Assembly (NCBI GenBank): GCA_963817295.1
Contig: CAWFOF010000002.1
Location: forward strand, 3,683 to 67,682
Length of the DNA stretch: 64,000 bases
Source: an uncultured Solirubrobacteraceae bacterium
GTDB taxonomy: Bacteria; Actinomycetota; Thermoleophilia; Solirubrobacterales; Solirubrobacteraceae
Reading direction: 5' to 3'
This document shows, piece after piece, positions 5,710 to 28,530 of the stretch (its first letter is position 1; every line of letters begins with the position of its first letter). Below the pieces are notes generated by a model. It was not told the origin of the DNA and ran no database searches. It saw only the letters and a list, made by a program, of their open reading frames with translations. Position numbers and translations under genes: made by a program.

Positions 5710-5807
5710 GGGCCACGACCCCGCAGGCACACACCTGACGCCCCCGGGGCTTCCGGCGGACCTTCCGCCGGGAGCCCCGTCGGTCGTCACGACCCGAGAC
5801 GAGAGCC

Positions 5808-7813
5808 ATGAACCAGCCCCAGAAGAAGAAGTCGGTCATCGAGGAGCGCCAGTCGACCAGCTACAAGGTTCGCGAGCGCCTCAGCACCATTGGGAACGGC
5901 ATCCTCAAGATCCTGCTGAAGGATCCGCTGGCCTGGTTCCTGCTGATCGCGGCCGTCGCCCTGATCATCACCTTCTTCACGCTGCTGGGGCAGATCAAGC
6001 CGAGCTCGCCCGGTCGCGCGGCCACGCTGTCCGAGGTCACCAAGCTCGCGCAGGACAAGCAGATCAGGACGGTGCTCCTGCTGGACCAGGACAACCGCGT
6101 CATCGTCCGCACGCGCACGGGCGAGACCATCTGGGCGGCCTATCCGTCGGCCGGCGCCAACACCGGCCAGCTTCTCTCGCGCTTCCAGCAGGCGGGCGCG
6201 ACGGTCGCGGTCGACCAGCAGGCCGACATCCCGACGAAGAAGATCCTCGTCCAGTTCCTCCTGCCGATCCTGCTGCTCGTCACCCTGTTCGCGTTCTTCA
6301 TGCGCCTCAGCGACGACGAGGGCGCGGGCGGGATCGCGTCGTTCTCGAAGTTCACAGGCCGTCGCCGCAAGAGCGGCGAAGGCAGCGGGATCACGTTCGC
6401 GGACGTCGCCGGCAATCCGGAGGCGCTCGCCGAGCTGAAGGAGATCCGCGACTACCTCGCCGACCCGACGAAGTACTCGAGCATGGGTGCGAGCGCGCCC
6501 AAGGGCGTGCTGCTGGTGGGCCCGCCCGGCACCGGCAAGACGCTGATCGCCCGCGCGGTGGCGGGCGAGGCCAACGCGAACTTCTTCTCGATGTCCGGAT
6601 CGGACTTCGTCGAGTCGCTCGTGGGTGTGGGGGCGGCGCGCGTCCGTGACCTCTTCGCCCAGGCACGCAAGGTCGCGCCGACCATCATCTTCATCGACGA
6701 GCTCGACGCCGCCGGCCGCAAGCGCGGCGCGGGCATCGGCCAGGGCAACGATGAGCGCGAGCAGACGCTCAACCAGATCCTCGTCGAGATGGACGGGTTC
6801 GGCGGGGACGCCGGTCTCGTCGTCATGGGCGCGACGAACCGCCCCGACATCCTCGACGACGCGCTTCTGCGCCCGGGCCGCTTCGACCGTCAGGTCACCG
6901 TCGACGTTCCGGACGTGCACGGCCGCTACGAGATCCTCGGTCTCCACGGGAAGGGCAAGCCGTTCGATCAGGACGTCGACCTGCGCGAGATCGCGAAGCT
7001 CTGCCCGGGCTTCTCGGGTGCAGAGCTCGCGAACGTCATCAATGAGGCGGCGCTGTTGACCGTTCGCGAGGGGCGTACCCACATCGATCAGGCCACGCTC
7101 GAGGAGGCCATCGACCGCGTGGTCGCGGGCCCGGCGAAGAAGACGCACATCCTGACTCCCGACGAGCGCTGGGTCATCGCGATCCACGAGGCCTGCCACG
7201 CCGTCGTCACGCGCAGCGTCGGGCAGACCATCAGCGCGCAGAAGCTCTCGATCGTCGCGCGCGGGCGCACGCTGGGGACCGCCGCGCACATGCTGACCGA
7301 CAAGGACCAGACGGTCCGCCAGGAACCCGACCTGCTCCGCGAGCTGACATCGGTGATGGCCGGCGCCGCGGGTGAGAAGCTCGAGTTCGGCTTTTCTCCA
7401 CCGGCGTCCACGACGACCTGCACGCGGCGACGGCGCTGGCGCGGGCGATGGTGACCGCGTACGGCATGTCCGACGAACTCGGGCCGGTGACGATCGGCGA
7501 GAAGCAGGGGGAGGTCTTTCTCGGCAATTCGCTCCAGGACCTCGGTCAGATCAGTCCCGACACGCTGAACACGATCGACCGGGAGGTCGAGCGCCTCGTC
7601 GGCGAGTCGATGTCGCATGCCGCCGCCGTGCTGAAGAGCAACTGGCAGGCGGTCGTCGAGGTCGCCGAGGCGCTGCTCGAGCACGAGACGCTCTCCGGGG
7701 TGGCGCTGGACGCGCTGCTCTCCACGGTTCATGCGATGCCGGTCGCCGGTGACGCGCTCCCTTCGACCCCGGACTCCCGCGCCACGGATGCGCCTTCAGG
7801 TCCCGGCGCTTAG
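5808..7813 (+). CDS. ftsH: ATP-dependent zinc metalloprotease FtsH (one frame switch near 7390)
   Basis: ORF 5808..7454 carries GPPGTGKT (Walker A), [29 protein letters not shown] (SRH) and HEACHA (zinc site). It continues in ORF 7448..7813 ([14 protein letters not shown]...). The junction [26 protein letters not shown] was read manually. Confidence 0.95.
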
Positions 7814-14779: not shown

Positions 14780-15147
14780 TCAGCGCGAGCTCCCAAGGAA
14801 GTGGGCGACGTCGTCGAGCGCGCCGGGGCGCACGTAGTAGTAGACGAACAGGCCGTGCTTCTCGCTGTCGAGGACGCCGGCGTTGCGCAGCACCTTGAGG
14901 TGGTGGGCGAGCGTCGGCTGGCAGATGTCGAACAGCGGGAGCAGCTCGCACGGGCAGAGCTTGCCGGGGTGCGCGCGCAGCACGTCGACCAGCTGGATGC
15001 GCACCGGGTCGGCCAAGGCCTTGGCCAGCGCGGCGATGCTCGCGCGGCCTGTGCCGAGCTGACGTCGGGCGCGGGCGGCGCGCAGTCGCAGCTGCTCGCC
15101 GGCGGCCCGCTTGCGTCTTGGGGGTGATCTCGAGCTGCGGCTGGCAT
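14780..15147 (-). CDS. arsR: ArsR/SmtB-family metalloregulator (frame switches near the N-terminus)
   Basis: ORF 14780..15253(-) reads IAALAKALADPVRIQLVDVLRAHPGKLCPCELLPLFDICQPTLAHHLKVLRNAGVLDSEKHGLFVYYYV. The N-terminus in the ORF 14068..15147 frame (MPAAARDHPQDASGPPASSCDCAPPAPDV) parallels the CC-containing N-terminus of the second ArsR. Confidence 0.8.
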
Positions 15148-15156
15148 CGGCGTTCA

Positions 15157-15399
15157 CGCCGCCGGCGGCGAGCAGGCGCTTGACGCGCGTCGACGTCGGG
15201 GACGTTGCCGGAGCATGACGGGTGCCGTCGATGGCGAGCGCCGGGGTGCTCATGACGCCGCGCTGCGGCCATCTGCGCGTAGTCGGTGACCTTCTCGACG
15301 CTCGGCGTCCAGGCCGAGCTCGTGCGATGGCCTTGCTGGGTGACGAGCGCGAGCGCCTCGCAGCGCTTGCAGCCGGGGCCGAGGACTTCGGGTGTTCAT
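15157..15399 (-). CDS. Thioredoxin-like small redox protein (redox-active disulfide protein 2 type), heavily frameshifted as assembled
   Basis: Manual translation from the ATG at 15399 gives MNT.EVLGPGCKRCEAL...VEKVTDYAQMAA..GVMSTPALAIDG...NVPDVD..VKRLLAA. The CxxC motif and the VMSTPAL(A/V)IDG motif are present. It is ~80 aa. Several frame switches make the ends approximate. Confidence 0.55.
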
Positions 15400-15418
15400 G
15401 GGTGGCTTTCCTGGTCGG

Positions 15419-16489
15419 TCAGAGGATGAGGTTGAAGAGCAGGCCGATCGCGATGATCGACACGGCGACGGTGGCGGCCCAGATGGCGATCAGCTTCACC
15501 ATCAGCACGCGCCGCAGCAAGCATCATCTCCGGCAGCGACAGCGCGATGACGGCCATCATGAACGCGAGCACCGTGCCCATCGCGACGCCCTTGGCGTGC
15601 AGCACCTGCGATCAGCGGAAGGACGCCGGCGGCGTTCGAGTAGAGCGGCACGCCCATCAGGACGGCGGCGGGCACAGCGAGCGGGTTGTCCGTGCCGGCG
15701 ATCGAGGCGAGCGCGTCGGCCGGCACCCACCCGTGGATGACGGCACCGAGCGCGATCCCGACCAGCAGATAGGGCCAGACCCGTCCGAGGATGTTGCGCA
15801 CCTCGTCGCGCGCGTACGCGAAGCGGTCAGCCAGCTGCAGCCCGACGGCGGGGTCGATGCCCAGGCGGCATGTTCGTCTCGAACACGAACGGCTCGACGT
15901 AGCGCTCGAGGCTCATCCGTCCGAGCACGACGCCGGCGAGGATCGCGATGCTCAGCCCGGAGACGATGTACAGCGCGGCGACCTGACGCCGAACATGCCG
16001 AACAGCAGCACGATCGCGACCTCGTTGACGAGCGGGGAGGCGATCAGGAACGACAGCGTCACACCGAGCGGCACGCCGGCTGAGACAAACCCGATGAACG
16101 CCGGGACCGCCGAACATGAGCAGAACGGGGTCGCGACGCCGAGCGTGGCTGCGAGCACGTTGCCGACACCCTCGCGCCTGCCGCCCAGAAGCGCCCGGGT
16201 GCGCTCGACCGACATGTACGAGCGAAGCACGCGACCGCGAACACGATGCCCGCCAGCAGCAGCAGGATCTTGGTCGTGTCGTAGAAGAAGAACCGCACCG
16301 GCTGCCGACGGGAGCAGTCAGGTCAAGCCCGGCGACGCCACCGAGCAGCCAGTCCCACAGCGGTGCCAGCGCCTTGATGGCCGCAAGCCACAGCACGCCG
16401 AGCACCCCGAGGGTCACGAGCGGATGCCGTCGCGCCATTCGCGGACGGGTGGGCCGCAGTCCGACGTCGAGCGTTGCGCGGGTGGCCAT
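15419..16489 (-). CDS. ArsP-like predicted permease (PF03773-type), frameshifted as assembled
   Basis: Fragments: ORF 15827..16489 N-terminus (HPLVTLGVLGVLWLAAIKALAPLWDWLLG), ORF 16059..16298 (RFFFYDTTKILLLLAGIVFAV), ORF 15952..16230 (GVATPFCSCSAVPAFIGFVSAGVPLGVTLSFLIASPLVNE), ORF 15502..15801 (ILGRVWPYLLVGIALGAVIHGWVP) and ORF 15396..15605 (GVAMGTVLAFMMAVIALSLPEMM). Confidence 0.7.
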
Positions 16490-16500
16490 CCTGCCCCCTC

Positions 16501-16526
16501 AATCTATTGACAACTATCGATAGATT
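16501..16526. promoter_or_regulatory. AT-rich palindrome, candidate ArsR operator in front of the permease gene
   Basis: AATCTAT (16501-16507) and ATAGATT (16520-16526) are inverted. The inner sequence CTATCGATAG (16514-16523) is a perfect palindrome. The site lies between the arsC stop (16534) and the permease start (16489) in otherwise very GC-rich DNA. Confidence 0.5.
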
Positions 16527-16533
16527 AGCACGG

Positions 16534-17172
16534 CTACAGGCGCGCGTCGTCGAGGTCGCGCAGCAGCGCACGTACGCGGTGCTCGATCGCGCCACGGATG
16601 GTGCGGACCACCTCGAGGCTCTGTCCCGCGGGGTCGGGGAGATCCCAGTCCTGGTAGCGCTTCCCCGGATAGACGGGACACGAGTCCCCGCACCCCATCG
16701 TGATGATCACGTCGGCTGCGCGCGCGACCTCGTCCGTGAGCGGCTTGGGGAACGCCACGTCCAGGTCGAGCCCGATCTCGCGCATCGCCTCGGCGACCAC
16801 GGGGTCGACCTCGGCTGAGGGATGGGACCCGGCGGAGCGTGCCTCGATCCGCTCGTCGGAGAGATGCCGCAGCAGCGCGGCGGCCATCTGACTTCGGCCG
16901 GCATTGTGCACGCAGACGAACAGCACCTCCGGCTGCGTCTTGGCGATCAGCCCCTCCGCCTGGCCGAGCGCGCGCAGCCGGTCCCGCGCGAAGCGCTCGG
17001 TGAGCAGCGGCAGATAGATGTCGATCCGCGCGCTGAGGCGCAGCTCGCGGTAGGTCTCGCGCACGAGCCGCTCCACGGTCTGCGGCGAGAGAATGCCGCG
17101 ATACGCCTCTGCAAGCCGCTCGCAGATTGCGCGAAGTTGGGCTTCGTGGGTGCTGGGGCCGGTGGCGTGCAT
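16534..17172 (-). CDS. arsC: Arsenate reductase, LMW-PTP (thioredoxin-coupled) type with ~70-aa N-terminal helical extension
   Basis: Intact ORF of 212 aa. It carries VLFVCVHNAGRSQMAAALL (the CX5R(S) P-loop) and DVIITMGCGDSCP. AAGGAG lies upstream of the ATG. Confidence 0.85.
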   Translation of the reverse strand: MHATGPSTHEAQLRAICERLAEAYRGILSPQTVERLVRETYRELRLSARIDIYLPLLTERFARDRLRALGQAEGLIAKTQPEVLFVCVHNAGRSQMAAALLRHLSDERIEARSAGSHPSAEVDPVVAEAMREIGLDLDVAFPKPLTDEVARAADVIITMGCGDSCPVYPGKRYQDWDLPDPAGQSLEVVRTIRGAIEHRVRALLRDLDDARL

Positions 17173-17205: not shown

Positions 17206-18475
17206 TCAGGTGCCGGCGAGCGGGTCGCGGCTGGGACTGCGGCGTGACTGCTCGCTCGGCAGCAGCAGCGAGAGCGCGCCGGCCGCGAGCACGAAGGCCG
17301 ACCGACGCCCACAGGCACGCCTCGAGCCCCTGCCACTGGTAGAGGAGACCGGAGAGGAGCGTCCCGGCGAGCCGCCCGCACGCGTTGGCCATGTAGTAGA
17401 AGCCGACGCTCATCGCCACCTGGTCGCCGTCCGCGTACGCGAGGATCAGGTACGAGTGCACGGCCGAGTTCAGGGCGAACACGATCCCGAACAGGATCAG
17501 CCCGGCGACGAGGACCGTCGTCGGGTCGATGCCGGCGCCGAGCGCGATGGCGATGACGGCGGGGAAGGCCGCGAGCACGAACGCCAGGCGCGCCGCGGTG
17601 CGCCCGTCGGGTGCGCCGTGCTCGGCGCTGCGCTCGCGCACGAGGCGCGGCGCCGACGCCTGCACGATGCCGTAGCCGATCACCCAGACCGCCATGAAGG
17701 TGCCGACCTGCCAGAAGCGTCCAGCCCAGGACGGTGCGCAGGTAGACCGGCAGGCCGACGACGAACCAGACGTCGCGCGAGGCGAAGAGGAAGATGCGCG
17801 CCGCCGCGAGGATGTTCACCGCGCGGTTGTTGGAGAACATGTGGCGGAACTTCGCCTTGGCGTCGCGCGCGGCCGAGGCTGCCGGTCATGAACGGCACGG
17901 TGAGCACGAGCGCGCCGAAGACCATCGCGGCGAGCAGCAGCATCGCGGTCTGGAAGCTCGTGACCGTGAGCAGCAGGCCGCCGAGGAAGAAGCCGACGCC
18001 CTTCAGCGCGTTCTTCGATCCGGTGAGGATCGCCACCCAGCGGTAGAGCGCGCCCGGCGCGTCGTCCGCGACCACGAGCTTCACGGCGCTCTTGGAGCTC
18101 ATCTTCGTGAGGTCCTTCGCGATGCCCGAGAGCGCCTGCGCCGCCATGACGTACCCGACGACGAGCCAGCCGTCGGGCGCCAGGCCGAGCATCAGCAGCG
18201 CGAGCGTCTGGATCAGCAGCCCCATGACGAGCGTCGTGGTGAGGCCGAACCGCGCCGCGAGGAAGCCGCCGACGAGGTTCGTGACGATCCCGAAGATCTC
18301 GTAGAACGCGAAGACCGTCGCGAGCTGGAACGGGGTGTACCCGAGCCCGTAGAAGTAGAAGAGGACGAGCAGCCGGATCGCGCCGTCGGCGATCGTGTCG
18401 GCCCAGTAGGCGGCCGTGACGAGCGCGTAGTTGCGCAGGTCCCCGTCCTGGCGCTTGGCGGCTGCCGGTGCTCAT
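17206..18475 (-). CDS. arsJ: Organoarsenical (1-arseno-3-phosphoglycerate) efflux MFS transporter ArsJ, frameshifted as assembled
   Basis: The manually read N-terminus is DLRNYALVTAAYWADTIADGAIRLLVLFYFYGLGYTPFQLATVFAFYEIFGIVTNLVGG. It continues through ORF 17680..18225, ORF 17172..17840 (NRAVNILAAARIFLFASRDVWFVVGLPVYL) and the ORF 16514..17695 frame (MAVWVIGYGIVQASAPRL...FYYMANACGRLAGTLLSG). It lies 4 nt downstream of a dedicated GAPDH gene. Confidence 0.75.
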
Positions 18476-18479
18476 GGGC

Positions 18480-19497
18480 TCAGCTGAGGCTGCGGGCGAC
18501 GATCGCGGCGAGGTCGACGAGCCGGTTCGCGTAGCCCCACTCGTTGTCGTACCAGGCGAGGATCTTCACCTGCGTGTGGTCGGTGACCTTGGTGGAGAGC
18601 GCGTCGACGATGCCCGACCGCGGGTCGTCCTTGAAGTCGATCGAGACCAGCGGGCGCGTCTCGTAGCCGAGGATGCCGGCGAGCGGCCCGGTCGGCCGCG
18701 GCGGCCTGCGCAGCAGGCCGTTCACCTCCTCGACGGTGGTGGCGCGGGCCACCTCGAACACGCAGTCGGTCAGCGAGGCGTTGAGCAGCGGCACGCGGAT
18801 GGCGAGGCCGTCGAGCCTGCCCTGCAGCTCGGGGAAGATGAGGCCGATCGCGGTCGCCGACCCCGTCGTCGTCGGGATCAGCGACATGCCGGCGGCGCGC
18901 GCCCGGCGCAGGTCCTTGTGCGGCGCGTCGACGATCGTCTGCGTGTTCGTGAGGTCGTGCAGCGTGGTGATCGAGCCGCGGTCGATCCCGAGTCCCTCGT
19001 GGATGACCTTCACGACGGGCGCCAGGCAGTTCGTCGTGCAGGAGGCGGCGGTGACGATGTCGTGGGCGGCCGGGTCGTACCGGTCGTCGTTCACGCCGAC
19101 GACGACGTTCAGCGCGCGGTCGTCCTTGACCGGTGCGGCGACGATGACCTTCCGCACGCCGCGGTCGAAGTAGGGCGCGAGCGTCTCCGGCGTGCGGAAC
19201 GCCCCGGTGCACTCGAGGACGAGATCGACGCCGAGGTCGTCCCACGGCACGTCCCCGGGCGCGGCGTGACCCGTGTACGCGAGCGTCGCGTCCCCGATCG
19301 TCAGCTGGTCGCCGTCGCCGTGCACGCCGCGGTCCCAGCGGCCGTGGACGGAGTCGAAGGTCAGGAGGTGCGCGGCGGTCGCGGCATCGCCGTGCAGCTC
19401 GTTGACGTGGACGACGGTCGAGGTCGTCGCGGTCCCAGGCGGCGCGCAGGGCGAGCCGGCCCATGCGTCCGAAACCGTTGATGGCGATGCGGGTCAC
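18480..19497 (-). CDS. gap: ArsJ-associated glyceraldehyde-3-phosphate dehydrogenase (one frame switch near 19410)
   Basis: [14 protein letters not shown] (ORF 18472..19497) joins ORF 18480..19325, which carries [15 protein letters not shown] and [14 protein letters not shown]. This is the second GAPDH in the window; the housekeeping copy is at 43052. Confidence 0.85.
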
Positions 19498-19543
19498 GTG
19501 GCCCCCTGTCGTGATCGATCGGCTCAGGCTGCTGGGGCGGGTG

Positions 19544-20656
19544 TCACGGGCGCGGCGCCGGTGGGCGCGTCCGTCCGTGCGGCTCAGGCCACCAGCGGCG
19601 CCGCAGCCACAGCGCGACGTAGACGAGGCCGACGAGGACCGGCACCTCGATCAGCGGGCCGACGACGCCGGCGAGCGCCTGACCCGAGGTGGCGCCCCAG
19701 ACGCCGACGGCGACGGCGATCGCCAGCTCGAAGTCGTTGGAGGCGACGGTGAAGGCCATCGTCGCGGTCTTCGGGTAGCCGAGGCTGCATCGCGCGGCCG
19801 ACGCCGAACCCGAGGATCCACATGATCAGGAAGTACGCGAGCAGCGGCAGCGCGATCCGCGCGACGGTGAGCGGGTCGGCGGTGATCGCGTCGCCCTGGA
19901 TGGCGAACAGCAGGACGATCGTGAACAGCAGCCCGTACAGCGTGATCGGCGCGATCCGCGGGATGAACCGCGTCTCGAACCACTCGCGCCCGTGCGTGCG
20001 CAGGCCCCAGCGGCGGGTCAGGTAGCCGGCGGTGAGCGGGATGCCGAGGAAGATCAGGACGGTGCGCGCGACCTCCCAGATCCCGACCTGGAAGCCCTGC
20101 GGTGTCGAGGCCGAGCAGGTCGGGCAGCGCGTTGAGGTAGAACCAGCCGAGCACGCGCGTAGGCGACGACCTGGAAGATCGCGTTGAAGACGACGAGGAC
20201 GGCGGCGCGGTCGTTGTCGCCTGCCGGCGAGGTCGTTCCAGACGAGGACCATCGCGATGCAGCGCGCGAGGCCGACGACGATCACGCCGGTCCGGTACGC
20301 GGGCTCGTCGGCGAGGAAGATCCAGGCCAGCGCGAACATCAGCGCCGGGCCGACGACCCAGGAGAGGAAGAGCGACGACGCCGAAGATGCGGCGGTCGCC
20401 CTGCGCTGCGCATCTTGCCCATGTCCTCGTAGCGGACCTTCGTCAGGACCGGGTACATCATGAGCAGCAGCCCGAGCGCGATGGGCAGGCTGACCGTTCC
20501 GACCTTGAGCTTGTCGAGGCCGTCGTTGAGCCCGGGGATCACCGATCCGAGCGCCAGCCCGGCGGCCATCGCCAGCGCGATCCAGAGCGGCAGGAAGCGG
20601 TCGAGCGTCGACAGCCGGCGAAGGACGGCCTGCTCTTCGGGGGCTGTCGTCGCCAC
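19544..20656 (-). CDS. acr3: ACR3-family arsenite efflux transporter, frameshifted as assembled
   Basis: ORF 20339..20656 reads [26 protein letters not shown]...[14 protein letters not shown]. The ORF 19584..20681 frame reads [20 protein letters not shown]...[17 protein letters not shown]...[16 protein letters not shown] 19544..19759 reads [22 protein letters not shown]...[13 protein letters not shown]. Confidence 0.85.
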
Positions 20657-20674
20657 TGAGTCCGAGACTATCCA

Positions 20675-20712
20675 TTGACAATCGTCATTTCAATCGATAT
20701 TTGTTTATCGAT
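20675..20712 (+). promoter_or_regulatory. Candidate promoter (TTGACA-17-TATTTG) overlapped by an ATCGATA/TATCGAT inverted repeat (candidate ArsR operator)
   Basis: TTGACA at 20675-20680, a 17-nt spacer, then TATTTG at 20698-20703. ATCGATA (20693-20699) and TATCGAT (20706-20712) are inverted. The site is in the divergent acr3 / arsR-arsM intergenic region. Confidence 0.5.
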
Positions 20713-21065
20713 GCCCGTCGATATGGAACTGACCCCCAAGCGCAAGCGACCGGCCGGCGAGCCGTGCTGCGAGCCCGTCGTCTACCCCGACGTCGAGCGC
20801 GGAGCAGGCGCTGCGGATGGCGGAGGTCGCCAAGGCGCTCGGCGACCCGATCCGCCTGCAGCTCGTCGACGTCCTGCGCAAGCACGCGGGGAAGGTCTGC
20901 GTGTGCGAGCTGGTGCCGCTCTTCGACGTCGCGCAGCCGACGCTCTCCCACCACCTCAAGAAGCTCCGCGAGGCCGGGATCGTCGACTCCGAGCGCCAGG
21001 GCCTCTGGGCCTACTACTACGTCCGTCCCGAAGCTCTGAAGGAGCTGACCACATGGCTGAGCTGA
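20711..21065 (+). CDS. arsR: ArsR/SmtB-family metalloregulator (one frame switch near 20800)
   Basis: MPVDMELTPKRKRPAGEPCCEPVVYPDVERG (ORF 20675 frame) joins ORF 20817..21065, which reads MAEVAKALGDPIRLQLVDVLRKHAGKVCVCELVPLFDVAQPTLSHHLKKLREAGIV. Confidence 0.85.
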
Positions 21066-21853
21066 CCGACACCGAGATCCGCGAGACCGTCCGCGAGCGC
21101 TACGCCGCCGCGGCCCAGGCCGTCGCGGAAGAACCAGGGCTGCGGCTGCGGCCCCGCGGCCGAGAACTCGAGCTGCTGCGGCACCGACACGCTGACCACC
21201 GACGCTCAGCGGCGAGCAGGTCTTCGGCGAGGCGATGTACGACCGCGGCGAGGTCGAAGGCGTTCCCGCGGACGCCGTCCAGGCCTCGCTCGGGTGCGGC
21301 GTGCCCGACCGCCGTCGCCGATCTGCACGAGGGCGAGACGGTCCTCGACCTCGGGTGCCGGCGCGGGCGCCGACGTCCTCATCTCCGCCGGCCGGGTCGG
21401 CCCGACCGGCAAGGCCATCGGCCTGGACATGACCGACGAGATGCTCGCGCTCGCGCGCGCCAACGCGGAGCAGGCCGGCGTCGAGAACGTCGAGTTCGTC
21501 AAGGGCTACATCGAGGACCTGCCGCTCCCCGACGCCTCGGTCGACGTCGTCATCTCCAACTGCGTGATCAACCTGTCCGGCGACAAGCAGCAGGTGCTGC
21601 GCGAGGCCGCGCGCGTCCTGCGCCCCGGCGGGCGCTTCGCCGTCTCGGACGTCATCGCCGACCCCGACATGGACGAGGCCACCCGCGCCGACATGGCGCA
21701 GTGGACCGGCTGCATCGCCGGCGCGCTGACCGCGGCAGGAGTTCGACGGCGGCGCTGACCGCCGCCGGCCTCGTCGACGTCGAGATCCGCGAGACGCACC
21801 GCGTCCACGAGCACGCCGCCTCGGCGATCATCCGCGCGCGGAAGCCCGCATGA
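21053..21853 (+). CDS. arsM: Arsenite S-adenosylmethionine methyltransferase, frameshifted as assembled
   Basis: [21 protein letters not shown], then a manually read Cys-rich stretch GCGCG..SSCCG, then ORF 21294..21758 ([71 protein letters not shown]...[11 protein letters not shown]). The tail [26 protein letters not shown] ends at 21853. Confidence 0.85.
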
Positions 21854-22688
21854 GCGACGAGGACATCCAGCTCAACGACCCGCAGACGCTCTACCGCCGC
21901 TGGGAGGACTCCCAGTGGAACCCGTTCGAGATCGACCTCGGCGCCGACATCGCGCAGTGGGAGAGCGCGGACGACGGCCAGCGCGGGCTGCTGCACTTCG
22001 TCCTCTCCTCGCTCATGGTCGCCGAGGAGCGCATCACGACGAAGTTCTCCGGGCTCGTCGGCGCACACGGGTCGGAGGAGGAGGCGACGTTCCTCGCCAC
22101 CCAGCAGGTCGACGAGGCGCGCCACATGCAGTTCTACGCGCGCTTCCAGGACGAGGTCGTCGCCGACCCGGCCACGATCGCCGCCCATGTCGACCGCGCC
22201 CGGGCGAGCGTCTCGGACGCCTTCCGGCAGATCTTCGACGTCGCGCTCGTCGAGGCCCACGAGCAGCTCGTCGCCGCGCCCGCCGACCTCGCCGCCAAGG
22301 TCCGCTTCGTCACGATCTACCACCTGATCCTCGAAGGCACGCTCGGCCTGACGACGTTCAAGTTCTCCACGGACTACCTCAGCCGCGAGGGGCTGCTCCC
22401 GGGCTTCGTCGAGGGCTACTCGAAGATCCACCACGACGAGACCCGGCACATCGGCTACGGCGTCTGGTACCTGCGCGAGACGGTCCGCGAGCACCCGGAG
22501 ACGGCCGAGGTCGTGCGCGCCACCCTGCGCGAGCTGCTGCCCTCGGTGGCGGAGTCGCTGCGGCCACCGGCCGACGGGGCCGGGCGTGCTCGGGCGTGAG
22601 CGAGGACGACCTGCGGACGTTCGCGCTCGACGGGCTCACCCGCCGCCTGAAGATCATCGGCGTCCCGCTCGAGAGCGTCTTCGCCTAG
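21850..22688 (+). CDS. R2-like ligand-binding oxidase (ferritin-like dimetal-carboxylate protein, RNR-R2 superfamily); one frame switch near 22570
   Basis: ORF 21850..22599 plus the tail of ORF 21915..22688. Motifs: QWNPFEIDLGADIAQWES, LMVAEERI, EEATFLATQQVDEARH, YHLILEGTLGL, IHHDETRHIGYG. The full E/EXXH/E/EXXH ligand set is present. The ATG overlaps the arsM stop (ATGA). Confidence 0.7.
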
Positions 22689-23333
22689 CGCCGGCGCTTC
22701 AGCGCGATGCCCTCGAGCAGGTGCGCGACGTGCTCGCAGGCGTCGATGCTCGCCTCGAGCGAGGCGAAGATGTCCTTCCAGCGGATCACGACCATCGGGT
22801 CGATGCCGTTGGCGAAGAGCGAGGCCATCGCCTCGCGGCTCAGCCGGTCGCCCTCGTTCTCCAGGCGGTGGATCTCGACGAGCGCCGGGCCGACGTCGTT
22901 GCCCGGTGCGCAGCCCGCGCAGCGCCTCGGCGACCTGCTCGCCCGCGCCGACGAGGACGTCGCACATGCGGTCGGCCTGTTCCATCGGCGCCTCGACGTG
23001 GTAGACGCCGAGCGTGTCGGCGGTCTGCTCGGCGTAGTCGACGACGTCGTCGAGCGCGGTCGCGAGGGCGTAGCCGTCGGCGAAGTCGAACGGCGCGCGG
23101 ACCTTGCCGGCGCCGAGCCGGTGGATGATGTCGTGCGTGATCCGGTCGCCCTCGTTCTCGCAGATGACGAGGTCGTTCGCGAGGTCGGCGCGCTCGGGGT
23201 AGTCGCTCAGGACGTCGCGCAGCAGCATCGTCGCGCGCTGCACGGTGCGGCCGGACTCCTCGAACAGGTCCAGGAGCTCGAGGTCGTAGCTGCGGCGAAG
23301 GAGCGCATCGTCCGGCCCAACGGTACGACGCAT
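22686..23333 (-). CDS. DUF47-family (PhoU-like, Pit-accessory type) protein; one frame switch near 22910
   Basis: ORF 22455..23333 reads LDLFEESGRTVQRATMLLRDVL...LVICENEGDRITHDIIHRL. The manually read C-terminus is IHRLENEGDRLSREAMASLFANGIDPMVVIRWKDIFASLEASIDACEHVAHLLEGIALKRR. No pit gene is adjacent. Confidence 0.7.
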
Positions 23334-23353
23334 CGCGCGGCGATCGCCAGGAC

Positions 23354-23386
23354 GTTCACGAGTCGTTCACACGCGTCTTCACGGGT
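23354..23386. promoter_or_regulatory. PHO-box-like direct repeats in the DUF47 / winged-helix divergent region
   Basis: GTTCACGAGTC (23354) and GTTCACACGCG (23365) are exactly 11 nt apart. A third, degenerate CTTCAC follows at 23377. Confidence 0.55.
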
Positions 23387-23395
23387 GCGTAACCC

Positions 23396-23795
23396 GTGGC
23401 GCCGGCCAGCTGCGGACGTGGAACTCGGCGGGAATTCCGGCCTCACGGAGGCGTGGACGTCCTGCACGTCGGTGCGCTCGAGATTCGCCTCGGCGAGGGC
23501 CTCGCCCTCGCCGGCGGGCGTGCCCTGCGCCTGTCGGTGCGCGAGTTCGGCCTGCTCGCCGAGCTCGCCCGTCACGAGGGCCGGATCGTGCGCCGCGAGG
23601 ACCTGTACGAGCACGTGTGGGGCACGCCGCTGCGCGCCGGCGACCGGACGATCGACGTCTACGTCCGCAAGCTGCGCGTGAAGCTCGAGCAGTCGCTGCC
23701 GCGAGTGGCGCTTCATCCACACCCACGTCGGCTTCGGCTACCGGTTTGCGCCCGAGCGTTCACACGACTTTCACACGGACGCGACAACTCGATAA
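23396..23795 (+). CDS. Stand-alone OmpR/PhoB-type winged-helix DNA-binding protein (no receiver domain); one frame switch near 23700
   Basis: ORF 23396..24133 reads LEIRLGEGLALAGGRALRLSVREFGLLAELARHEGRIVRREDLYEHVWGTPLRAGDRTIDVYVRKLRVKLEQSLP. The +1 frame then reads EWRFIHTHVGFGYRFAPE... with a stop at 23793-23795. Only ~60 nt of non-coding DNA lies upstream. Confidence 0.65.
23758..23779. promoter_or_regulatory. PHO-box-like direct repeats upstream of pstS
   Basis: GTTCACACGAC (23758) and TTTCACACGGA (23769) are 11 nt apart, ~80-100 nt upstream of the pstS ATG (23856). The RBS GAGGAG is at 23845-23850. Confidence 0.55.
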
Positions 23796-23855
23796 CAGAC
23801 TGTCGCGACCACGCTGTGAGCCTGCGAGCAGGCATGACACGACAGAGGAGATCAC

Positions 23856-24940
23856 ATGAGGTATTCCTGGCTGGCCGCCGGTGCGGCCGCCGTCCTCGCG
23901 CTCGGCGTCACCGCGTGCGGCAGCGAGCAACTCCAGCAGTTCCAGCAGCAAGTCCGGCGGGTCACTCACCGGAGCCGGCTCGACGTTCGTCGCTCCGTTC
24001 TACAACGAGCTCGCCTCGCAGATCAAGAGCAAGGACGGCCTCACGGTCAACTACAACGCCGTCGGTTCCGGCGCGGGTGTGGCGCAGTTCACGCAGAAGA
24101 CCGTCGATTTCGGCGGGAACGATTCGACCCTGAAGCCCGAGGAGATCACCGCGGCCAAGACGGCCGGCGGCAGCGCTCCGGTGCAGATTCCCGACCGTCC
24201 TCGGCGCGATCACGATCTCCTACAACGTCTCCGGCGTCGAGAAGGGCCTGAAGCTCGACGGCCCGACGATCGCCGACATCTTCTCCGGGAAGATCACGAA
24301 GTGGAACGACCCGAAGATCGCCTCGCAGAACTCGGGCACGAGCCTGCCCAGCACGGACATCACGACGTGCCACCGGTCGGACTCGTCGGGTACGACGAAG
24401 GGCTTCACCACCTACGTCGCGATCTACGACTCGACGTGGGAGAAGAAGATCGGCGTCGACAAGACGGTCAAGTGGCCCGGCGGCACGGGGGCCAAGGGCA
24501 ACGACGGCGTCGCCGCGTGCGTGAAGCAGAACGACGGCGCGGTCGGGTATGTCGAGGAGGCGTACGCGCTGCAGAACAACTTCGACACCGCCGCGGTGAA
24601 GAACAAGTCGGGCGCCTACATCGCTCCGACGCTGGACTCGACGAGTGCGGCCGGCGACGGCGTCGAGGTCGCGGCGGACAACACGTTCAGCCCGCTCGAC
24701 TCGCCGAACCCTGCGGCGTACCCGATCACCTCGACGACCTACATGCTCCTGTGGCAGGACGCCTGCAAGGCGGGGCAGAGCAAGGAGACCGCGACGGGCG
24801 GGCAGACGTTCGCGAGCTTCGCGCTCGGCGAGGGGCAGAGCATCGCCAAGCAGCTCTACTACGCGCCGCTGCCGTCGAACATCAAGACCCAGGCCCAGAA
24901 GTCGGTTGACGGCCTGCAGTGCGACGGCAGCGCCCTCTAG
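23856..24940 (+). CDS. pstS: Phosphate ABC transporter substrate-binding lipoprotein PstS, frameshifted as assembled
   Basis: MRYSWLAAGAAAVLALGVTACGS (lipobox), then GAGSTFVAPFYNELA...VGSGAGVAQF (ORF 23881 frame), a manually read middle (TVLGAITISYNV...CHRSDSSGTTKGFT), and ORF 24521..24940 (PITSTTYMLLW). Confidence 0.9.
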
Positions 24941-24966
24941 CGGGCTGACGAAGGGAACCTGGTCGC

Positions 24967-26013
24967 ATGGAAGCCGGAGCCGTCAGCAGCAGCAGCAACG
25001 GGACCCCGCCGTCCCCGTTGCATCGCTCGCTGGCGGCCCGGCTTCCCGACCGGGCGCTGCGCTGGACGCTCGGGGCGGTCGCCGTCGGCATCCTCGTCCT
25101 GCTCGTCTACTTCTTCTACACGCTCTACGACGAGTCCCGGCCGCTGCTGAGTCAGGTCGGGATCCTCGACTTCGTCACCACGAACGACTGGAACCCGGCG
25201 AAGAACCAGTACGGAGCCTGGGCGCTGGTCGTCGGCACGCTGATCACCTCGGCACTGGCGCTGCTCATGGGCGTGCCCGTCGCCGTCGCCGTCGCGATCT
25301 TCTCGGTCGAGCTCGCGCCGCTGCGGGTCAAGCGCCCGCTGACGGTCCTGATCGAGCTTCTCGCGGCTGTGCCGTCGGTCGTCTACGGCCTGTGGGGCGT
25401 GTTCGTCCTGATCCCGCGTCTCAAGCCGGCCGAGCAGTGGTTCTCCGACACGTTCGCGTTCCTGCCGTTCGTCGGTGGGCCGGTCGCGGGACCGAACTAC
25501 TTCATCGCCGGACTGATCCTCGCGATCATGATCCTGCCGATCGTCAGCGCGATCTCCCGCGAGGTCATCCTGACCGTTCCGGTCGAGCTGAAGGAGGGCG
25601 CGCTCGCGCTGGGGGCCACCCGGTGGGAGATGATCAGGATGGGCGTCCTGCCCTATTCGTGGGGTGGGATCGCCGGCGCCGGGATGCTCGGCCTGGGCCG
25701 AGCGCTCGGTGAGACGATCGCCGTGGTGCTCGTGATCGGGAATGCCCCGCGGATCGGCGAATCGATCTTCTCGCAGGGGTACACGCTCGCCGCCGTGGTC
25801 GCCAACGAGTTCGGCGAGGCCGCTGACAACAACCTGCACAAGGCGGCGCTGATCTCGTGCGGCCTCGTGCTGTTCATCCTCACGCTGATCGTGAACTTCA
25901 TCGCCCGCTGGATCGTCGAGGGCGCCGAGAGGCGCCGCCACGCGGGCGCACCGCCGGCCGAGCCCGTCGAGGCTCAGCCGTCGTTCACCCCCACGCAGAC
26001 CGGAGCGGCCTGA
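24967..26013 (+). CDS. pstC: Phosphate ABC transporter permease PstC
   Basis: Intact 348-aa ORF with multiple TM segments. It carries LKEGALALGATRWEMI and GLGRALGETIAVVLVIGN. Confidence 0.9.
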   Translation: MEAGAVSSSSNGTPPSPLHRSLAARLPDRALRWTLGAVAVGILVLLVYFFYTLYDESRPLLSQVGILDFVTTNDWNPAKNQYGAWALVVGTLITSALALLMGVPVAVAVAIFSVELAPLRVKRPLTVLIELLAAVPSVVYGLWGVFVLIPRLKPAEQWFSDTFAFLPFVGGPVAGPNYFIAGLILAIMILPIVSAISREVILTVPVELKEGALALGATRWEMIRMGVLPYSWGGIAGAGMLGLGRALGETIAVVLVIGNAPRIGESIFSQGYTLAAVVANEFGEAADNNLHKAALISCGLVLFILTLIVNFIARWIVEGAERRRHAGAPPAEPVEAQPSFTPTQTGAA

Positions 26014-26016
26014 ATC

Positions 26017-26890
26017 ATGGCGACGACCCACGCGACGCTCCTCGCCCGCCGCCCGAGCACGCGGCGGCGCGTCGTCGACAAGGCGATGCGCGGCATCACG
26101 ATGCTCGCCTCGTGCGTCGCGCTCGTTCCGCTGCTCTTCGTCATCTACTACCTGGTCTCGAAGGGCCTGCCGGCCTGGAACGTCGACTTCTTCACCACGG
26201 ATCCGACCGGCAGCTTCCTCGGCGACCCTGGTGGGATCAAGAGCGCGATCGTCGGGTCGGTCGTGATCGTCGCGATCGCGACGATCCTCGCGGTGCCGCT
26301 CGGCATCGCCATCGCGATCTGGCTGACCCAGTACGGAACGACCAGCTGGTTCGCTCGGCTCATCCGCTACCTCGTCGACGTCATGACCGGTGTGCCGTCG
26401 ATCGTGTTCGGCCTCTTCATCTACGGCGTCCTCGTCGTCGGCGGCGGCGGGTTCGCAGGCTGGAAGGGGTCGCTCGCGATCGGCCTGCTGATGCTCCCGG
26501 TCGTCGCCAAGTCCGCCGAGGTCGCGCTGATGCTCGTTCCGAACCTCCTGCGCGAATCGGCACTGGCGCTCGGCGCGCCGAAGTGGCGCGTGATCTTCAG
26601 GGTGGTGTTGCCCACCGCGTCGGGCGCGATCCTCACCGGGGCGCTGCTCGGCGATCGCGCGCGGTGCAGGTGAGACGGCGCCGCTGCTGTTCACCGCCTT
26701 CGGCCAGCGCGGCTCCACCACCGACCCGTCGCAGCCGATGAACGCGCTCCCGCTGCAGATCTTCAACGACATCGGCCAGCCGAACGACGCGCTCGTGGAG
26801 CGAGCATGGGGCGCCGCGCTCCTGCTCGTGGTCGGCGTCCTGGCCCTGACCCTCATCGCCCGCTTCATCCAGAGCCGAAGCAAGGTGTGA
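26017..26890 (+). CDS. pstA: Phosphate ABC transporter permease PstA (one frame switch near 26655)
   Basis: ORF 26017..26673 (LRESALALGAPKWRVIFRVVLPTASGAILTGALL) continues in a manually read frame: AIARAAGETAPLLFTAF...IARFIQSRSKV, with a stop at 26888-26890. Confidence 0.85.
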
Positions 26891-26994
26891 CACGATCGTG
26901 ACCGAACGCATGTCGACAGAACAGCCCGAGTCCCAGCCCGATCCGCCGGACACGCCAGCGCGCCGAGCCGCCGCCCGTCCCGGAGCGCGCAGAG

Positions 26995-27820
26995 GTGGCA
27001 CGCCCGGTCGCGCGTGAGCGCGCCGGCCGAGGAGCCGGCCGTCGGCCGTGGCGGAGGCGACCGGGCCACTCGATCTCGATGCGCGACCTCAACGTCCACT
27101 ACGGCAAGAACCACGCCGTCAAGGACGTCTCGATGGAGTTCGCGGGCAACGAGGTCACCGCGCTGATCGGCCCGTCCGGCTGCGGGAAGTCGACGGTGCT
27201 GCGGGCGATCAACCGCATGCACGACGAGACGCCCGGAGCTCGCGTCGAGGGCGAGATCCTGCTCGACGGCGCCGACATCTACGCGCCCGGACGTCGACGT
27301 CACCGCGGTGCGCCGCGTCATCGGCATGGTCTTCCAGAAGCCGAACCCGTTCCCGACGATGTCGGTCTACGAGAACGTCGCCGCGGGCCTGCGCCTGTCC
27401 GGCACGAAGGCCCGTGGCAAGCTCGACGACATCGTGGAGCAGTCGCTGCGCGGCGCCGGGCTGTGGAATGAGGTGTCCGACCGCCTGAACGCCCCGGGGA
27501 TCAGCCTCTCCGGCGGTCAGCAGCAGCGGCTCTGCATCGCGCGCGCGATCGCCAACGAGCCCGAGGTGATCCTGATGGACGAGCCGTGCTCGGCCCTCGA
27601 CCCGATCGCCACGCTGCGCATCGAGGAGCTCATCAACGAGCTCAAGCAGCAGTACACGATCATCATCGTCACGCACAACATGCAGCAGGCCGCGCGCGTG
27701 GCCGACACGACCGCGTTCATGCTGCTCGGCGACCTCGTCGAGCACAACCCGACCGGCAAGATCTTCAGCAACCCCGACGACTCCCGCACCGAGGAGTACG
27801 TCACCGGGAAGTTCGGTTGA
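26995..27820 (+). CDS. pstB: Phosphate ABC transporter ATP-binding protein PstB (one frame switch near 27290; start uncertain, conservative Met at 27079)
   Basis: ORF 26995 frame: [42 protein letters not shown] 27308..27820: [10 protein letters not shown]...[32 protein letters not shown]...[11 protein letters not shown]. Confidence 0.9.
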
Positions 27821-27843
27821 CGATCGTGGAGGACGCGAGCCGC

Positions 27844-28530
27844 ATGCCCACTCGTCAGCACTTTCGAGATCAGCTCGTCGCGCTCGAGGGCCAGGCCCTC
27901 GGCGCGCTCGACATCGTCGTCGAGCAGCTCGACCGCGCGCTCGAGGCGCTCGAGCACAAGGACTCCGAGCTCGCGACCTTCGTGATCGCCGACGACGACC
28001 GCGTCGACGGCCGCTATCTCGAGGTGCACCAGGGGATCCTCTCGCTGCTCGCGCTGCAGGCGCCGGTCGCGACCGATCTGCGGCTCGTCGCCGCGCTCCT
28101 GCACGTGATCAAGCACGCCGAGCGCATGGGCGACCAGTGCGTGAACATCGCGAAGCTGATCCCGCTCGTCGGCAACGAGCCGCCGGTGGTGCCGGAGCTG
28201 CTCGAGAAGGTGCTGCGGATGGGCGCGGCGGCGCGCGCCGAGGTCGTCGAGGCGAAGCTCGCCTTCCACAGCCGCGACACCGACCTCGCCGCGGACCTCT
28301 CGCGCCAGGATCGCGAGGTCAATCGCCTGAACAAGGAGGTCTTCCGCCTCGCCGTCACCGTCGGCGACAACGAGGACAAGCGCGAGTGGGCGATGATGAT
28401 GACGCTGGTCGCGCGCGCGATCGAGCGCGTCGGCGACAACGCGGTCGGTGTCGGCGAGCAGGTCATCTTCGTCGAGACCGGGCTGTTTCGCGAGTATCCG
28501 ACGGACGAGGACGGGGACGAGCCCGGCTGA
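27844..28530 (+). CDS. phoU: Phosphate signalling complex protein PhoU
   Basis: Met at 27844 within ORF 27586..28530. Motifs: DDRVDGRYLEVHQGILSLLALQAPVATDLR and ARAIERVGDNAVGVGEQVIF. Intact. Confidence 0.85.
   Translation: MPTRQHFRDQLVALEGQALGALDIVVEQLDRALEALEHKDSELATFVIADDDRVDGRYLEVHQGILSLLALQAPVATDLRLVAALLHVIKHAERMGDQCVNIAKLIPLVGNEPPVVPELLEKVLRMGAAARAEVVEAKLAFHSRDTDLAADLSRQDREVNRLNKEVFRLAVTVGDNEDKREWAMMMTLVARAIERVGDNAVGVGEQVIFVETGLFREYPTDEDGDEPG

Follow-up and report, generated by a model that had tools for sequence, protein, structure and literature searches.

An R2lox-like gene in the arsenic operons of soil Actinomycetota: a candidate oxidase of trivalent arsenicals

What is a two-metal carboxylate protein of the ribonucleotide reductase (RNR) R2 superfamily doing directly behind an arsenite methyltransferase? 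The question is raised by a stretch of 64,000 nucleotides from an uncultured Solirubrobacteraceae bacterium (GenBank assembly GCA_963817295.1, contig CAWFOF010000002.1, positions 3,683 to 67,682), which is referred to here, in its full length, as the window. Its gene pair arsR-arsM is followed by a gene whose nearest characterised relatives are the ligand-binding oxidases of the R2-like type (R2lox), and which we call the R2lox-like gene. We know of no agreed physiological role for R2lox proteins after more than 15 years of structural study. An earlier note on this DNA had proposed the gene as a new component of arsenic metabolism. Our analysis makes it a credible arsenic-operon gene with a predicted chemistry: with a probability of roughly 40%, it encodes a cytoplasmic, O2-activating two-metal oxidase from a paralogous clade of the R2lox branch, which was recruited into ArsR-controlled operons and oxidises trivalent (methyl)arsenicals.

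The first point to settle is whether the neighbourhood is more than an accident of one genome. Clade-specific peptide patterns match 362 GTDB species-level genomes, and the locus counts given here refer to the best 80 of these, all of which belong to the Thermoleophilia (Solirubrobacterales, Thermoleophilales) or are unclassified metagenome-assembled genomes of Actinomycetota. Linkage was scored by tblastn, using the seven ars-island proteins of one locus (L001) against the 80 loci. Ars genes lie within 6 kb of the R2lox-like gene in 69 of them. The earlier note had named an adjacency unique to this genome as the outcome that would speak against its proposal; this is ruled out, as arsM lies immediately upstream in 34 loci. 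The colinear order arsR-arsM-R2lox-like gene occurs in 33 loci and arsM followed by the R2lox-like gene in 1; arsR precedes it without arsM in 12, other ars genes stand within 6 kb in 23, and no ars gene was found in 11. Direct operon position, with arsM and/or arsR upstream, is conserved in 46 of the 80. The 23 loci with other arrangements include arsR-arsM and a major facilitator superfamily (MFS) transporter before the R2lox-like gene, a metallophosphoesterase and a MIP channel before it, and arsC or a MIP channel after it, and upstream of the gene in 3 of the 11 loci lacking ars genes there is still either a MIP channel or the order arsM-MFS. At least five architectures are found overall, and the genes beyond the ars block vary from locus to locus. 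Across the 80 loci, arsC is co-located in about 50 and gapdh-arsJ in about 10.

Spacing within these operons is tight. The 4-nt overlap with arsM recurs in 17 of 34 pairs, the gap is at most 19 nt in 33 of 34, and arsR overlaps the R2lox-like gene in 8 of 13 direct pairs. Within the same loci the R2lox-like proteins are better conserved than ArsM (median identity 74.5% vs 65.3%). Two loci (L073, L053) retain short arsM remnants between arsR and the R2lox-like gene, which indicates that arsM was lost while the R2lox-like gene was kept. Judged by gene order and spacing, the R2lox-like gene is operonic with arsR-arsM, normally as the last gene, and translationally coupled. Some MFS insertions deserve a remark of their own: in six loci (L014, L026, L031, L040, L047, L052) the transporter between arsM and the R2lox-like gene has about 370 residues, could be assigned to no specific family, and may be an organoarsenical efflux pump.

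The divergent promoter and operator region that the earlier note had assigned jointly to arsR, arsM and the R2lox-like gene does carry a perfect inverted repeat between acr3 and arsR (Table 1). A 20-bp consensus, ATCGATATAyGTAgATmGAT, has 36 matches in 970 kb of related loci, 35 of them at an arsR start, and the palindrome usually finishes in the arsR ATG. We infer that it is the putative ArsR operator; the arsR message is probably leaderless. Since a scan of 20500-22900 for consensus sigma-70 promoters and terminators found neither, the evidence for the operator rests on the conserved palindrome.

The gene itself needs a correction. As the earlier note had described, the start codon overlaps the stop codon of arsM in the tetranucleotide ATGA, the ATG sharing bases with the TGA. 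The open reading frame 21850-22688 as drawn there is not a single frame, the frameshifts having been missed: the frame opened at 21850 ends at 22599 after 249 residues, and a different frame encodes the final 31 residues, which run to the TAG at 22686-22688. As reference we used a fully intact locus with the same gene order (L167, 92.5% identical, aligned over 20.6-22.7 kb). The alignment places 1-nt insertions at 22582 and 22591, and deletion of these two bases restores an intact protein of 278 residues with the C-terminal end ...PPADGAGVLGVSEDDLRTFALDGLTRRLKIIGVPLESVFA. Over 2.1 kb (20600-22720) the window shows ten 1-nt insertions and zero deletions relative to this locus, six in arsM, two in the R2lox-like gene, one in arsR (20801) and one in intergenic sequence. 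Frequent 1-nt insertions extend more widely (17300-28000), so that acr3, gapdh, arsJ, pstS and pstB are frame-broken as well, while the stretches between the breaks are 80-96% identical to orthologues. Because the neighbouring genes are equally broken, by the same type of insertion, and the corrected reading frame is intact, the breaks are most likely insertion-type assembly errors in the deposited contig and not decay of the R2lox-like gene; the pseudogene reading was rejected on these grounds. The 249-residue product is deposited as such in NCBI/ENA, on a contig of 74.9 kb.

To which family does the protein belong? The open reading frame matches the Pfam family PF00268 at 68.7 bits, and among the NCBIfam models the five for R2lox (NF006198-NF006202) fit best, with scores of 121-124 bits (top score 123.6) vs a lowest cut-off of 194. 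Intact orthologues likewise remain under the cut-offs, at 118-121 bits, and RNR beta subunit models reach 33-35 bits vs cut-offs of 237-310. A weak AurF match in Pfam and distant ADO matches were also recorded. The closest sequences in the PDB, according to HMMER, are GkR2loxI (4hr0, E 5e-20) and R2lox of M. tuberculosis (3ee4/Rv0233, E 5e-17). An AlphaFold2 model of an intact orthologue (predicted local distance difference test, pLDDT, 86; predicted template modelling score, pTM, 0.87) was compared with the PDB by Foldseek: ranks 1-34 are all R2lox structures at a template modelling (TM) score of about 0.82, followed by the class Ic RNR beta subunit (R2c) of Chlamydia at 0.77-0.78. The last helix of the model ends at residue 276 of 278, with no C-terminal tail. 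Judged by sequence and predicted structure, the protein is a two-metal member of the R2 superfamily with R2lox as its nearest characterised relatives.

The motifs AEE, DEARH, LEG and DETRH, which the earlier note had taken for the complete ligand set, are all present (Table 1). In window numbering the metal ligands are Glu59, Glu89, His92, Glu162, Glu197 and His200; they align to E69, E102, H105, E167, E202 and H205 of GkR2loxI, are invariant across the clade, and start with Glu rather than Asp. The residues around the metals set the clade apart. Four positions after the first His ligand, Tyr96 is found in 120 of 120 clade members vs Phe in 119 of 119 members of a sister clade and in 33 of the diverse relatives. 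In class Ia/Ib RNR R2 this position holds the radical Tyr; in R2lox and R2c it holds Phe. The Val that forms the ether cross-link position of R2lox is Ile62 here and Ile in 111 of 120 clade members by motif count, while its partner Tyr157 is kept. That Val has been described as "completely conserved" in R2lox (PMC6060897), and a V72I mutant of GkR2loxI retained cross-linking and lost Mn specificity (PMC6060897, PMC6399176); by analogy, the natural Ile62 hints at a relaxed Mn selectivity. Phe170 stands at the position of Tyr175 of GkR2loxI. At the tunnel position R2lox has Ala, and the RNR R2 groups all have Phe (PMC6399176); here Gly166 aligns to Ala171 of GkR2loxI, and the metal site should consequently be open to an outside ligand. 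About 91% of the clade members contain no cysteine at all.

The identification as R2lox made in the earlier note thus needs qualification. Fold, ligands and best PDB matches bear it out; strict R2lox membership was rejected, since the protein falls under the curated cut-offs and two conserved residues differ (Val to Ile62, Phe to Tyr96). For the block alignment to Rv0233 proposed there, the check covered the HMMER match to 3ee4 and the alignment to GkR2loxI.

How far does this clade extend, and where does it part from its relatives? Among 5.8 billion proteins searched there were thousands of matches, the top 120 of which have 277-301 residues and are 78-94% identical; intact orthologues of 277-281 residues at about 80% identity are abundant. 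In a representative library at 50% identity the ars-linked clade forms a single full-length cluster (P0121), and the next full-length relatives outside it are 38-42% identical and miss the R2lox cut-offs as well. No relative above 35% identity was found among 72,556 plasmids. The homologues carry the public name "ribonucleotide-diphosphate reductase subunit beta" at NCBI and JGI. As a separate observation, one genome (contig CAVYPO010000004.1, loci L021 and L045) carries the ars-linked clade twice; the copies are separated by about 90 kb, and each lies downstream of a MIP channel gene.

The sister clade (P0137/P0272 type, about 300 residues) lives in the same Thermoleophilia taxa, is 41-46% identical to the ars-linked clade and keeps both Val and Phe. 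None of its 6 distinct contexts is ars-linked (Fisher p 2.6e-5); its neighbours are TetR/EthR regulators or unrelated genes. The changes in the second sphere (Tyr96, Ile62, Phe170, Gly166) coincide with the recruitment into ars operons, a pattern that would be expected of a new function after duplication. At the sister-clade loci L083, L085 and L086 (5282-5917 / 5301-5903, minus strand) a divergent TetR/EthR-type regulator lies alongside. Such regulators typically sense hydrophobic ligands, and their presence suggests a small hydrophobic inducer for the sister-clade paralogue.

Full-text literature searches found nothing linking R2lox to arsenic or arsM, ribonucleotide reductase to arsM, or ferritin-like proteins to arsR/arsM, nothing relevant turned up in those on methylarsenite oxidases, and the 59 arsenic gene families of AsgeneDB include no ferritin-like or RNR-like entry. 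The statement of the earlier note that no named ars gene encodes a ferritin-like dimetal oxidase agrees with the literature searched and with this database. We are apparently dealing with an R2lox-related oxidase gene with a distinct active-site signature, in a new arsenic context and undescribed as an arsenic gene.

What would such a protein do in an arsenic operon? In the pathway we favour, whose arsenic induction, metal content, substrate and direction of chemistry are all predictions, arsenic would detach ArsR from its putative operator at the start of arsR, and the R2lox-like enzyme would be made together with ArsM. A reduced Mn/Fe or Fe/Fe centre, held by the six ligands named above, would react with O2. 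With Gly166 in place of the tunnel-blocking Phe of RNR R2, an outside ligand could reach the metals. This ligand would be a trivalent arsenical, most likely methylarsenite or dimethylarsenite from ArsM or from uptake in soil, possibly arsenite, and would leave in the far less toxic pentavalent form after a two-electron oxidation. Two-electron oxidations are carried out by R2lox centres (PMC6060897, PMC9314684). Re-reduction of the centre might come from another molecule of substrate or from some general reductant of the cell, and Tyr96, which is specific to the clade, may transiently carry a radical or hole. In the gene maps and the neighbour clustering of the 80 loci no gene for a reductase partner recurs, an absence in keeping with an oxidase that takes its electrons from the substrate; the loss of cysteines fits a protein exposed to thiol-reactive arsenicals.

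Three points favour methylated As(III) over arsenite as substrate: among the direct neighbours arsM is the most frequent, the arsC found in about 50 loci would make arsenite oxidation futile, and resistance genes against environmental methylarsenite (ArsH, ArsP, ArsI) occur with or without arsM. ArsP is a methylarsenite efflux family, and the ArsP_1-family permease on the same island of the window was counted in favour of methylarsenite; ArsP as a recurrent neighbour is absent within 6 kb in all 80 loci. In a further-reaching version, which we put forward tentatively and consider less likely than not, the protein would be an arsenic oxidase of a third kind, unknown until now: a two-metal protein with the R2 fold and no cysteine, which would use O2 without flavin or molybdopterin and possibly a tyrosyl radical at the RNR position.

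Several points weigh against trivalent arsenicals as the substrate. The assignment is drawn from gene context, and the 80 loci are phylogenetically related, so that the counts given above describe the persistence of a linkage through rearrangements and not independent acquisitions. There are 12 loci without a nearby arsM and about 8-11 without arsenic context; in 9 of the latter no alternative conserved partner was found. In the reverse direction, we inspected 80 metagenome loci with ArsM relatives 62-84% identical, 66 of which had informative downstream sequence, and the R2lox-like gene lies downstream of arsM in only 13 of the 66 (20%); where it is absent, no recurrent substitute gene was found downstream of arsM. 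At this frequency the R2lox-like gene counts as accessory within the ArsR regulon and is no obligate partner of ArsM. The coupling to arsM claimed in the earlier note therefore holds for the operon arsR-arsM as such, and has to be restricted in view of the loci with arsR only and of the many arsM genes followed by something else: these contexts tie the gene to the ArsR regulon, and not to ArsM as such. Finally, long-chain (hydroxy) fatty acids are ligands of the characterised R2lox proteins, with which C16-C18 hydroxy fatty acids co-purify, and GkR2loxI has been reported as an alkane hydroxylase (PMC9314684, PMC10867098), so that by analogy a hydrophobic, non-arsenical substrate is possible.

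The alternative that survives best builds on this last point. An arsenic-induced protective enzyme could act on a lipid-like or otherwise hydrophobic compound, or on a peroxide, and limit oxidative or membrane damage, thereby belonging to the ArsR regulon without touching arsenic. Such a role would suit the fatty acid ligands and the alkane hydroxylation just mentioned, the TetR/EthR-type regulators adjoining the sister clade, the persistence of the gene in loci without arsM and its being optional for ArsM. We nevertheless regard it as unlikely, since relative to the lipid-context sister clade Phe gave way to Tyr96, Val to Ile62, Gln to Phe170 and Ala to Gly166 just where ars operons were joined, start and stop codons are tightly coupled to arsM and arsR across architectures, and the near-total loss of cysteine fits direct contact with thiol-reactive arsenicals.

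Arsenite itself as the substrate leads to another proposal, that of a cytoplasmic arsenite oxidase. As(III) would be converted to As(V), glyceraldehyde-3-phosphate dehydrogenase (GAPDH) would form 1-arseno-3-phosphoglycerate and ArsJ would export it, giving a molybdenum-free route of arsenite removal. Two-electron oxidation suits the chemistry of R2lox (PMC6060897), gapdh-arsJ lies divergently beside arsR and the R2lox-like gene in the window and in about 10 loci, and two loci (L071, L081) consist of arsJ-gapdh divergent from arsR-R2lox-like gene, the flank containing neither arsM nor acr3. The proposal is improbable all the same: the arsC of some 50 loci and the acr3 of several would set up a futile cycle, gapdh-arsJ is confined to those 10 or so of the 80, and the commonest direct partner is arsM. 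A lead to an arsenite oxidiser under the name "Conexibacter arsenicoxydans" was dropped, as no such taxon exists in the NCBI taxonomy and no paper on it was found.

A similarly low probability is given to an oxygenase that tailors or degrades organoarsenicals, be it by C-As or C-H hydroxylation or cleavage (an ArsI-like demethylation) or by contributing to the synthesis of a lipid-linked arsenical out of ArsM products. Ferritin-like two-metal oxygenases do carry out C-H hydroxylation, N-oxygenation and C-C cleavage, the weak AurF and distant ADO matches count in its favour, and besides the adjacency to arsM there is the R2lox tunnel, which holds long alkyl chains (PMC9314684). Methylation followed by demethylation would be futile, however; no other biosynthetic genes (radical S-adenosylmethionine enzymes, acyl-handling genes) recur in the 80 loci, and the reductase partner that a monooxygenase cycle would need is not conserved.

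The gene could also be read as coding for an RNR beta subunit, or as a pseudogene in decay that is next to arsM by chance, as the public names, the Tyr at the radical position and the frameshifted window copy might suggest. This reading is rejected as almost certainly wrong in view of scores near 35 bits with RNR beta models, Gly where all RNR R2 have Phe (PMC6399176), a chain that ends just after its last helix, the lack of an RNR alpha gene or domain among the called genes of the three mapped loci (L001, L002, L167), similar 1-nt insertions in neighbouring genes alongside abundant intact orthologues, and an operon position kept in 46 of 80 loci.

With the oxidation of trivalent (methyl)arsenicals as the preferred reading, the significance of the gene can be stated. 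A conserved offshoot of R2lox now has an unambiguous context, operons under ArsR control, and a short list of candidate substrates. A candidate ars gene is added that is widespread in abundant aerobic soil Actinomycetota, with pattern matches in 362 species-level genomes and thousands of metagenomic proteins, and that is mis-annotated in public records as an RNR beta subunit and missing from AsgeneDB. If methylarsenite is oxidised, this matters for the tolerance of soil methylators towards the toxic compounds that they make themselves, and for the speciation of arsenic in soil; if the protein is an oxidase of trivalent arsenicals, it would provide the first physiological substrate class for the R2lox branch of the ferritin superfamily.

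The remaining genes of the window are collected in Table 1. An intact arsM orthologue (L001) matches the NCBIfam model NF008823 at 283.5 bits vs a cut-off of 263. ArsM comes in two forms, a long one with an N-terminal extension carrying several CC pairs (L001, 7114-8004, 296 residues) and a short one of about 265 residues without it (the window, L002, L167). ArsC is fused to an extra helical domain, which is N-terminal in the window (Table 1), while in many related loci it is a three-helix bundle (MSMEG_6209_Nter) at the C-terminus (cluster 2, e.g., L031, 2537-3154). The ArsP_1-family permease, the palindrome-like site in front of it and the second arsR-like gene form a second small arsenic unit in the window. 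A YfcE-like metallophosphoesterase of about 243 residues recurs in related ars clusters (14 loci; e.g., L019, 4159-4890; L001, 1976-2749; L045; L029), sometimes in the order metallophosphoesterase-MIP-R2lox-like gene; to our knowledge none of the named ars genes is of this kind. The arsenic island adjoins a phosphate-uptake block (22700-28530), in which a convergent PhoU_div/DUF47 gene is followed by pstS, pstC, pstA, pstB and phoU, a neighbourhood not common to L001 or L002. Between 32001 and 34000 the G+C content of the window is unusually high, at 79.6% vs about 70-74% around it, and the AT skew is strongly negative. Neither an Rfam nor a tRNA scan of the window gave any match.

Table 1. 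Features of the arsenic island, in window positions.
Feature	Position	Strand	Remarks
R2lox-like two-metal carboxylate protein gene, ars-linked clade	21850-22688	+	278 residues after removal of 22582 and 22591
ATGA overlap, R2lox-like gene start / arsM stop	21850-21853	+	ATG 21850-21852, TGA 21851-21853
AEERIT motif	22021-22038	+	ligand Glu59 (22024-22026); Ile62 (22033-22035) at R2lox cross-link Val position; AEE 22021-22029
DEARHMQFY motif	22111-22137	+	ligands Glu89 (22114-22116) and His92 (22123-22125); Tyr96 (22135-22137), His+4; DEARH 22111-22125
YHLILEGTLG motif	22318-22347	+	Tyr157 (cross-link Tyr position); ligand Glu162 (22333-22335); Gly166 (tunnel position); LEG 22330-22338
DETRH motif	22435-22449	+	ligands Glu197 (22438-22440) and His200 (22447-22449)
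Perfect inverted repeat ATCGATA-N6-TATCGAT	20693-20712		ends in arsR start codon; divergent acr3/arsR region
arsM, arsenite S-adenosylmethionine methyltransferase	21056-21853	+	six 1-nt insertions: 21131, 21208, 21307, 21353, 21737, 21751
arsR, ArsR/SmtB-family repressor	20711-21065	+	N-terminal CC pair, CVC motif; 1-nt insertion 20801
acr3, arsenite efflux permease	19583-20656	-	divergent from arsR; two frameshifts; synteny
gapdh, ars-island glyceraldehyde-3-phosphate dehydrogenase, ArsJ partner	18486-19497	-	one frameshift
arsJ-type MFS transporter	17300-18453	-	two frameshifts
arsC, low-molecular-weight phosphatase-type arsenate reductase	16534-17172	-	N-terminal Phosphatase-like_N domain (PF21234)
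Second ArsR-type palindrome-like site	16502-16521		precedes ArsP_1-family permease; ATCTATTGACAACTATCGAT
ArsP_1-family permease	15254-16489	-	229 bits once joined across several frameshifts
Second arsR-like gene	14780-15253	-	follows ArsP_1-family permease

How does the protein compare with known systems? With R2lox (GkR2loxI, 4HR0; M. tuberculosis Rv0233, 3EE4; SeR2lox, 7QBP) it shares the fold (TM about 0.8), the Glu/Glu/His/Glu/Glu/His ligands with Glu first, the cross-link Tyr, and a small tunnel residue that leaves the metals open to an outside ligand. It differs in being only 22-28% identical, about 35 residues shorter and below all five R2lox cut-offs, in having Ile for the invariant Val, Tyr for the radical-site Phe and Phe for Tyr175 of GkR2loxI, and in belonging to a clade dedicated to ars operons, whereas R2lox stands without arsenic context. 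The sister clade has the taxa, ligands and cross-link Tyr in common with it, but keeps Val and Phe and is never adjoined by ars genes. The class Ic RNR beta subunit (NrdB of Chlamydia trachomatis), the next-best structural match, also has Glu as first ligand; its Phe at the radical site, the Phe blocking its tunnel and the C-terminal tail by which it binds the alpha subunit and works with NrdA are not seen in the R2lox-like protein. Among arsenic enzymes, ArsH is proposed as the counterpart in function: an accessory enzyme of ars operons that, as cited in PMC9623898, oxidises methylarsenite, MAs(III), to MAs(V). The two are not homologous: ArsH is an NADPH-FMN flavoprotein of flavodoxin fold, while the R2lox-like protein is a two-metal protein of ferritin fold with no cofactor-supplying partner in its operon. 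ArsI, the Fe(II)-dependent C-As lyase, is likewise an oxygen-dependent non-haem metal enzyme of ars operons and acts on trivalent organoarsenicals, but it has an unrelated mononuclear-iron glyoxalase/dioxygenase fold, and its demethylation would oppose ArsM.

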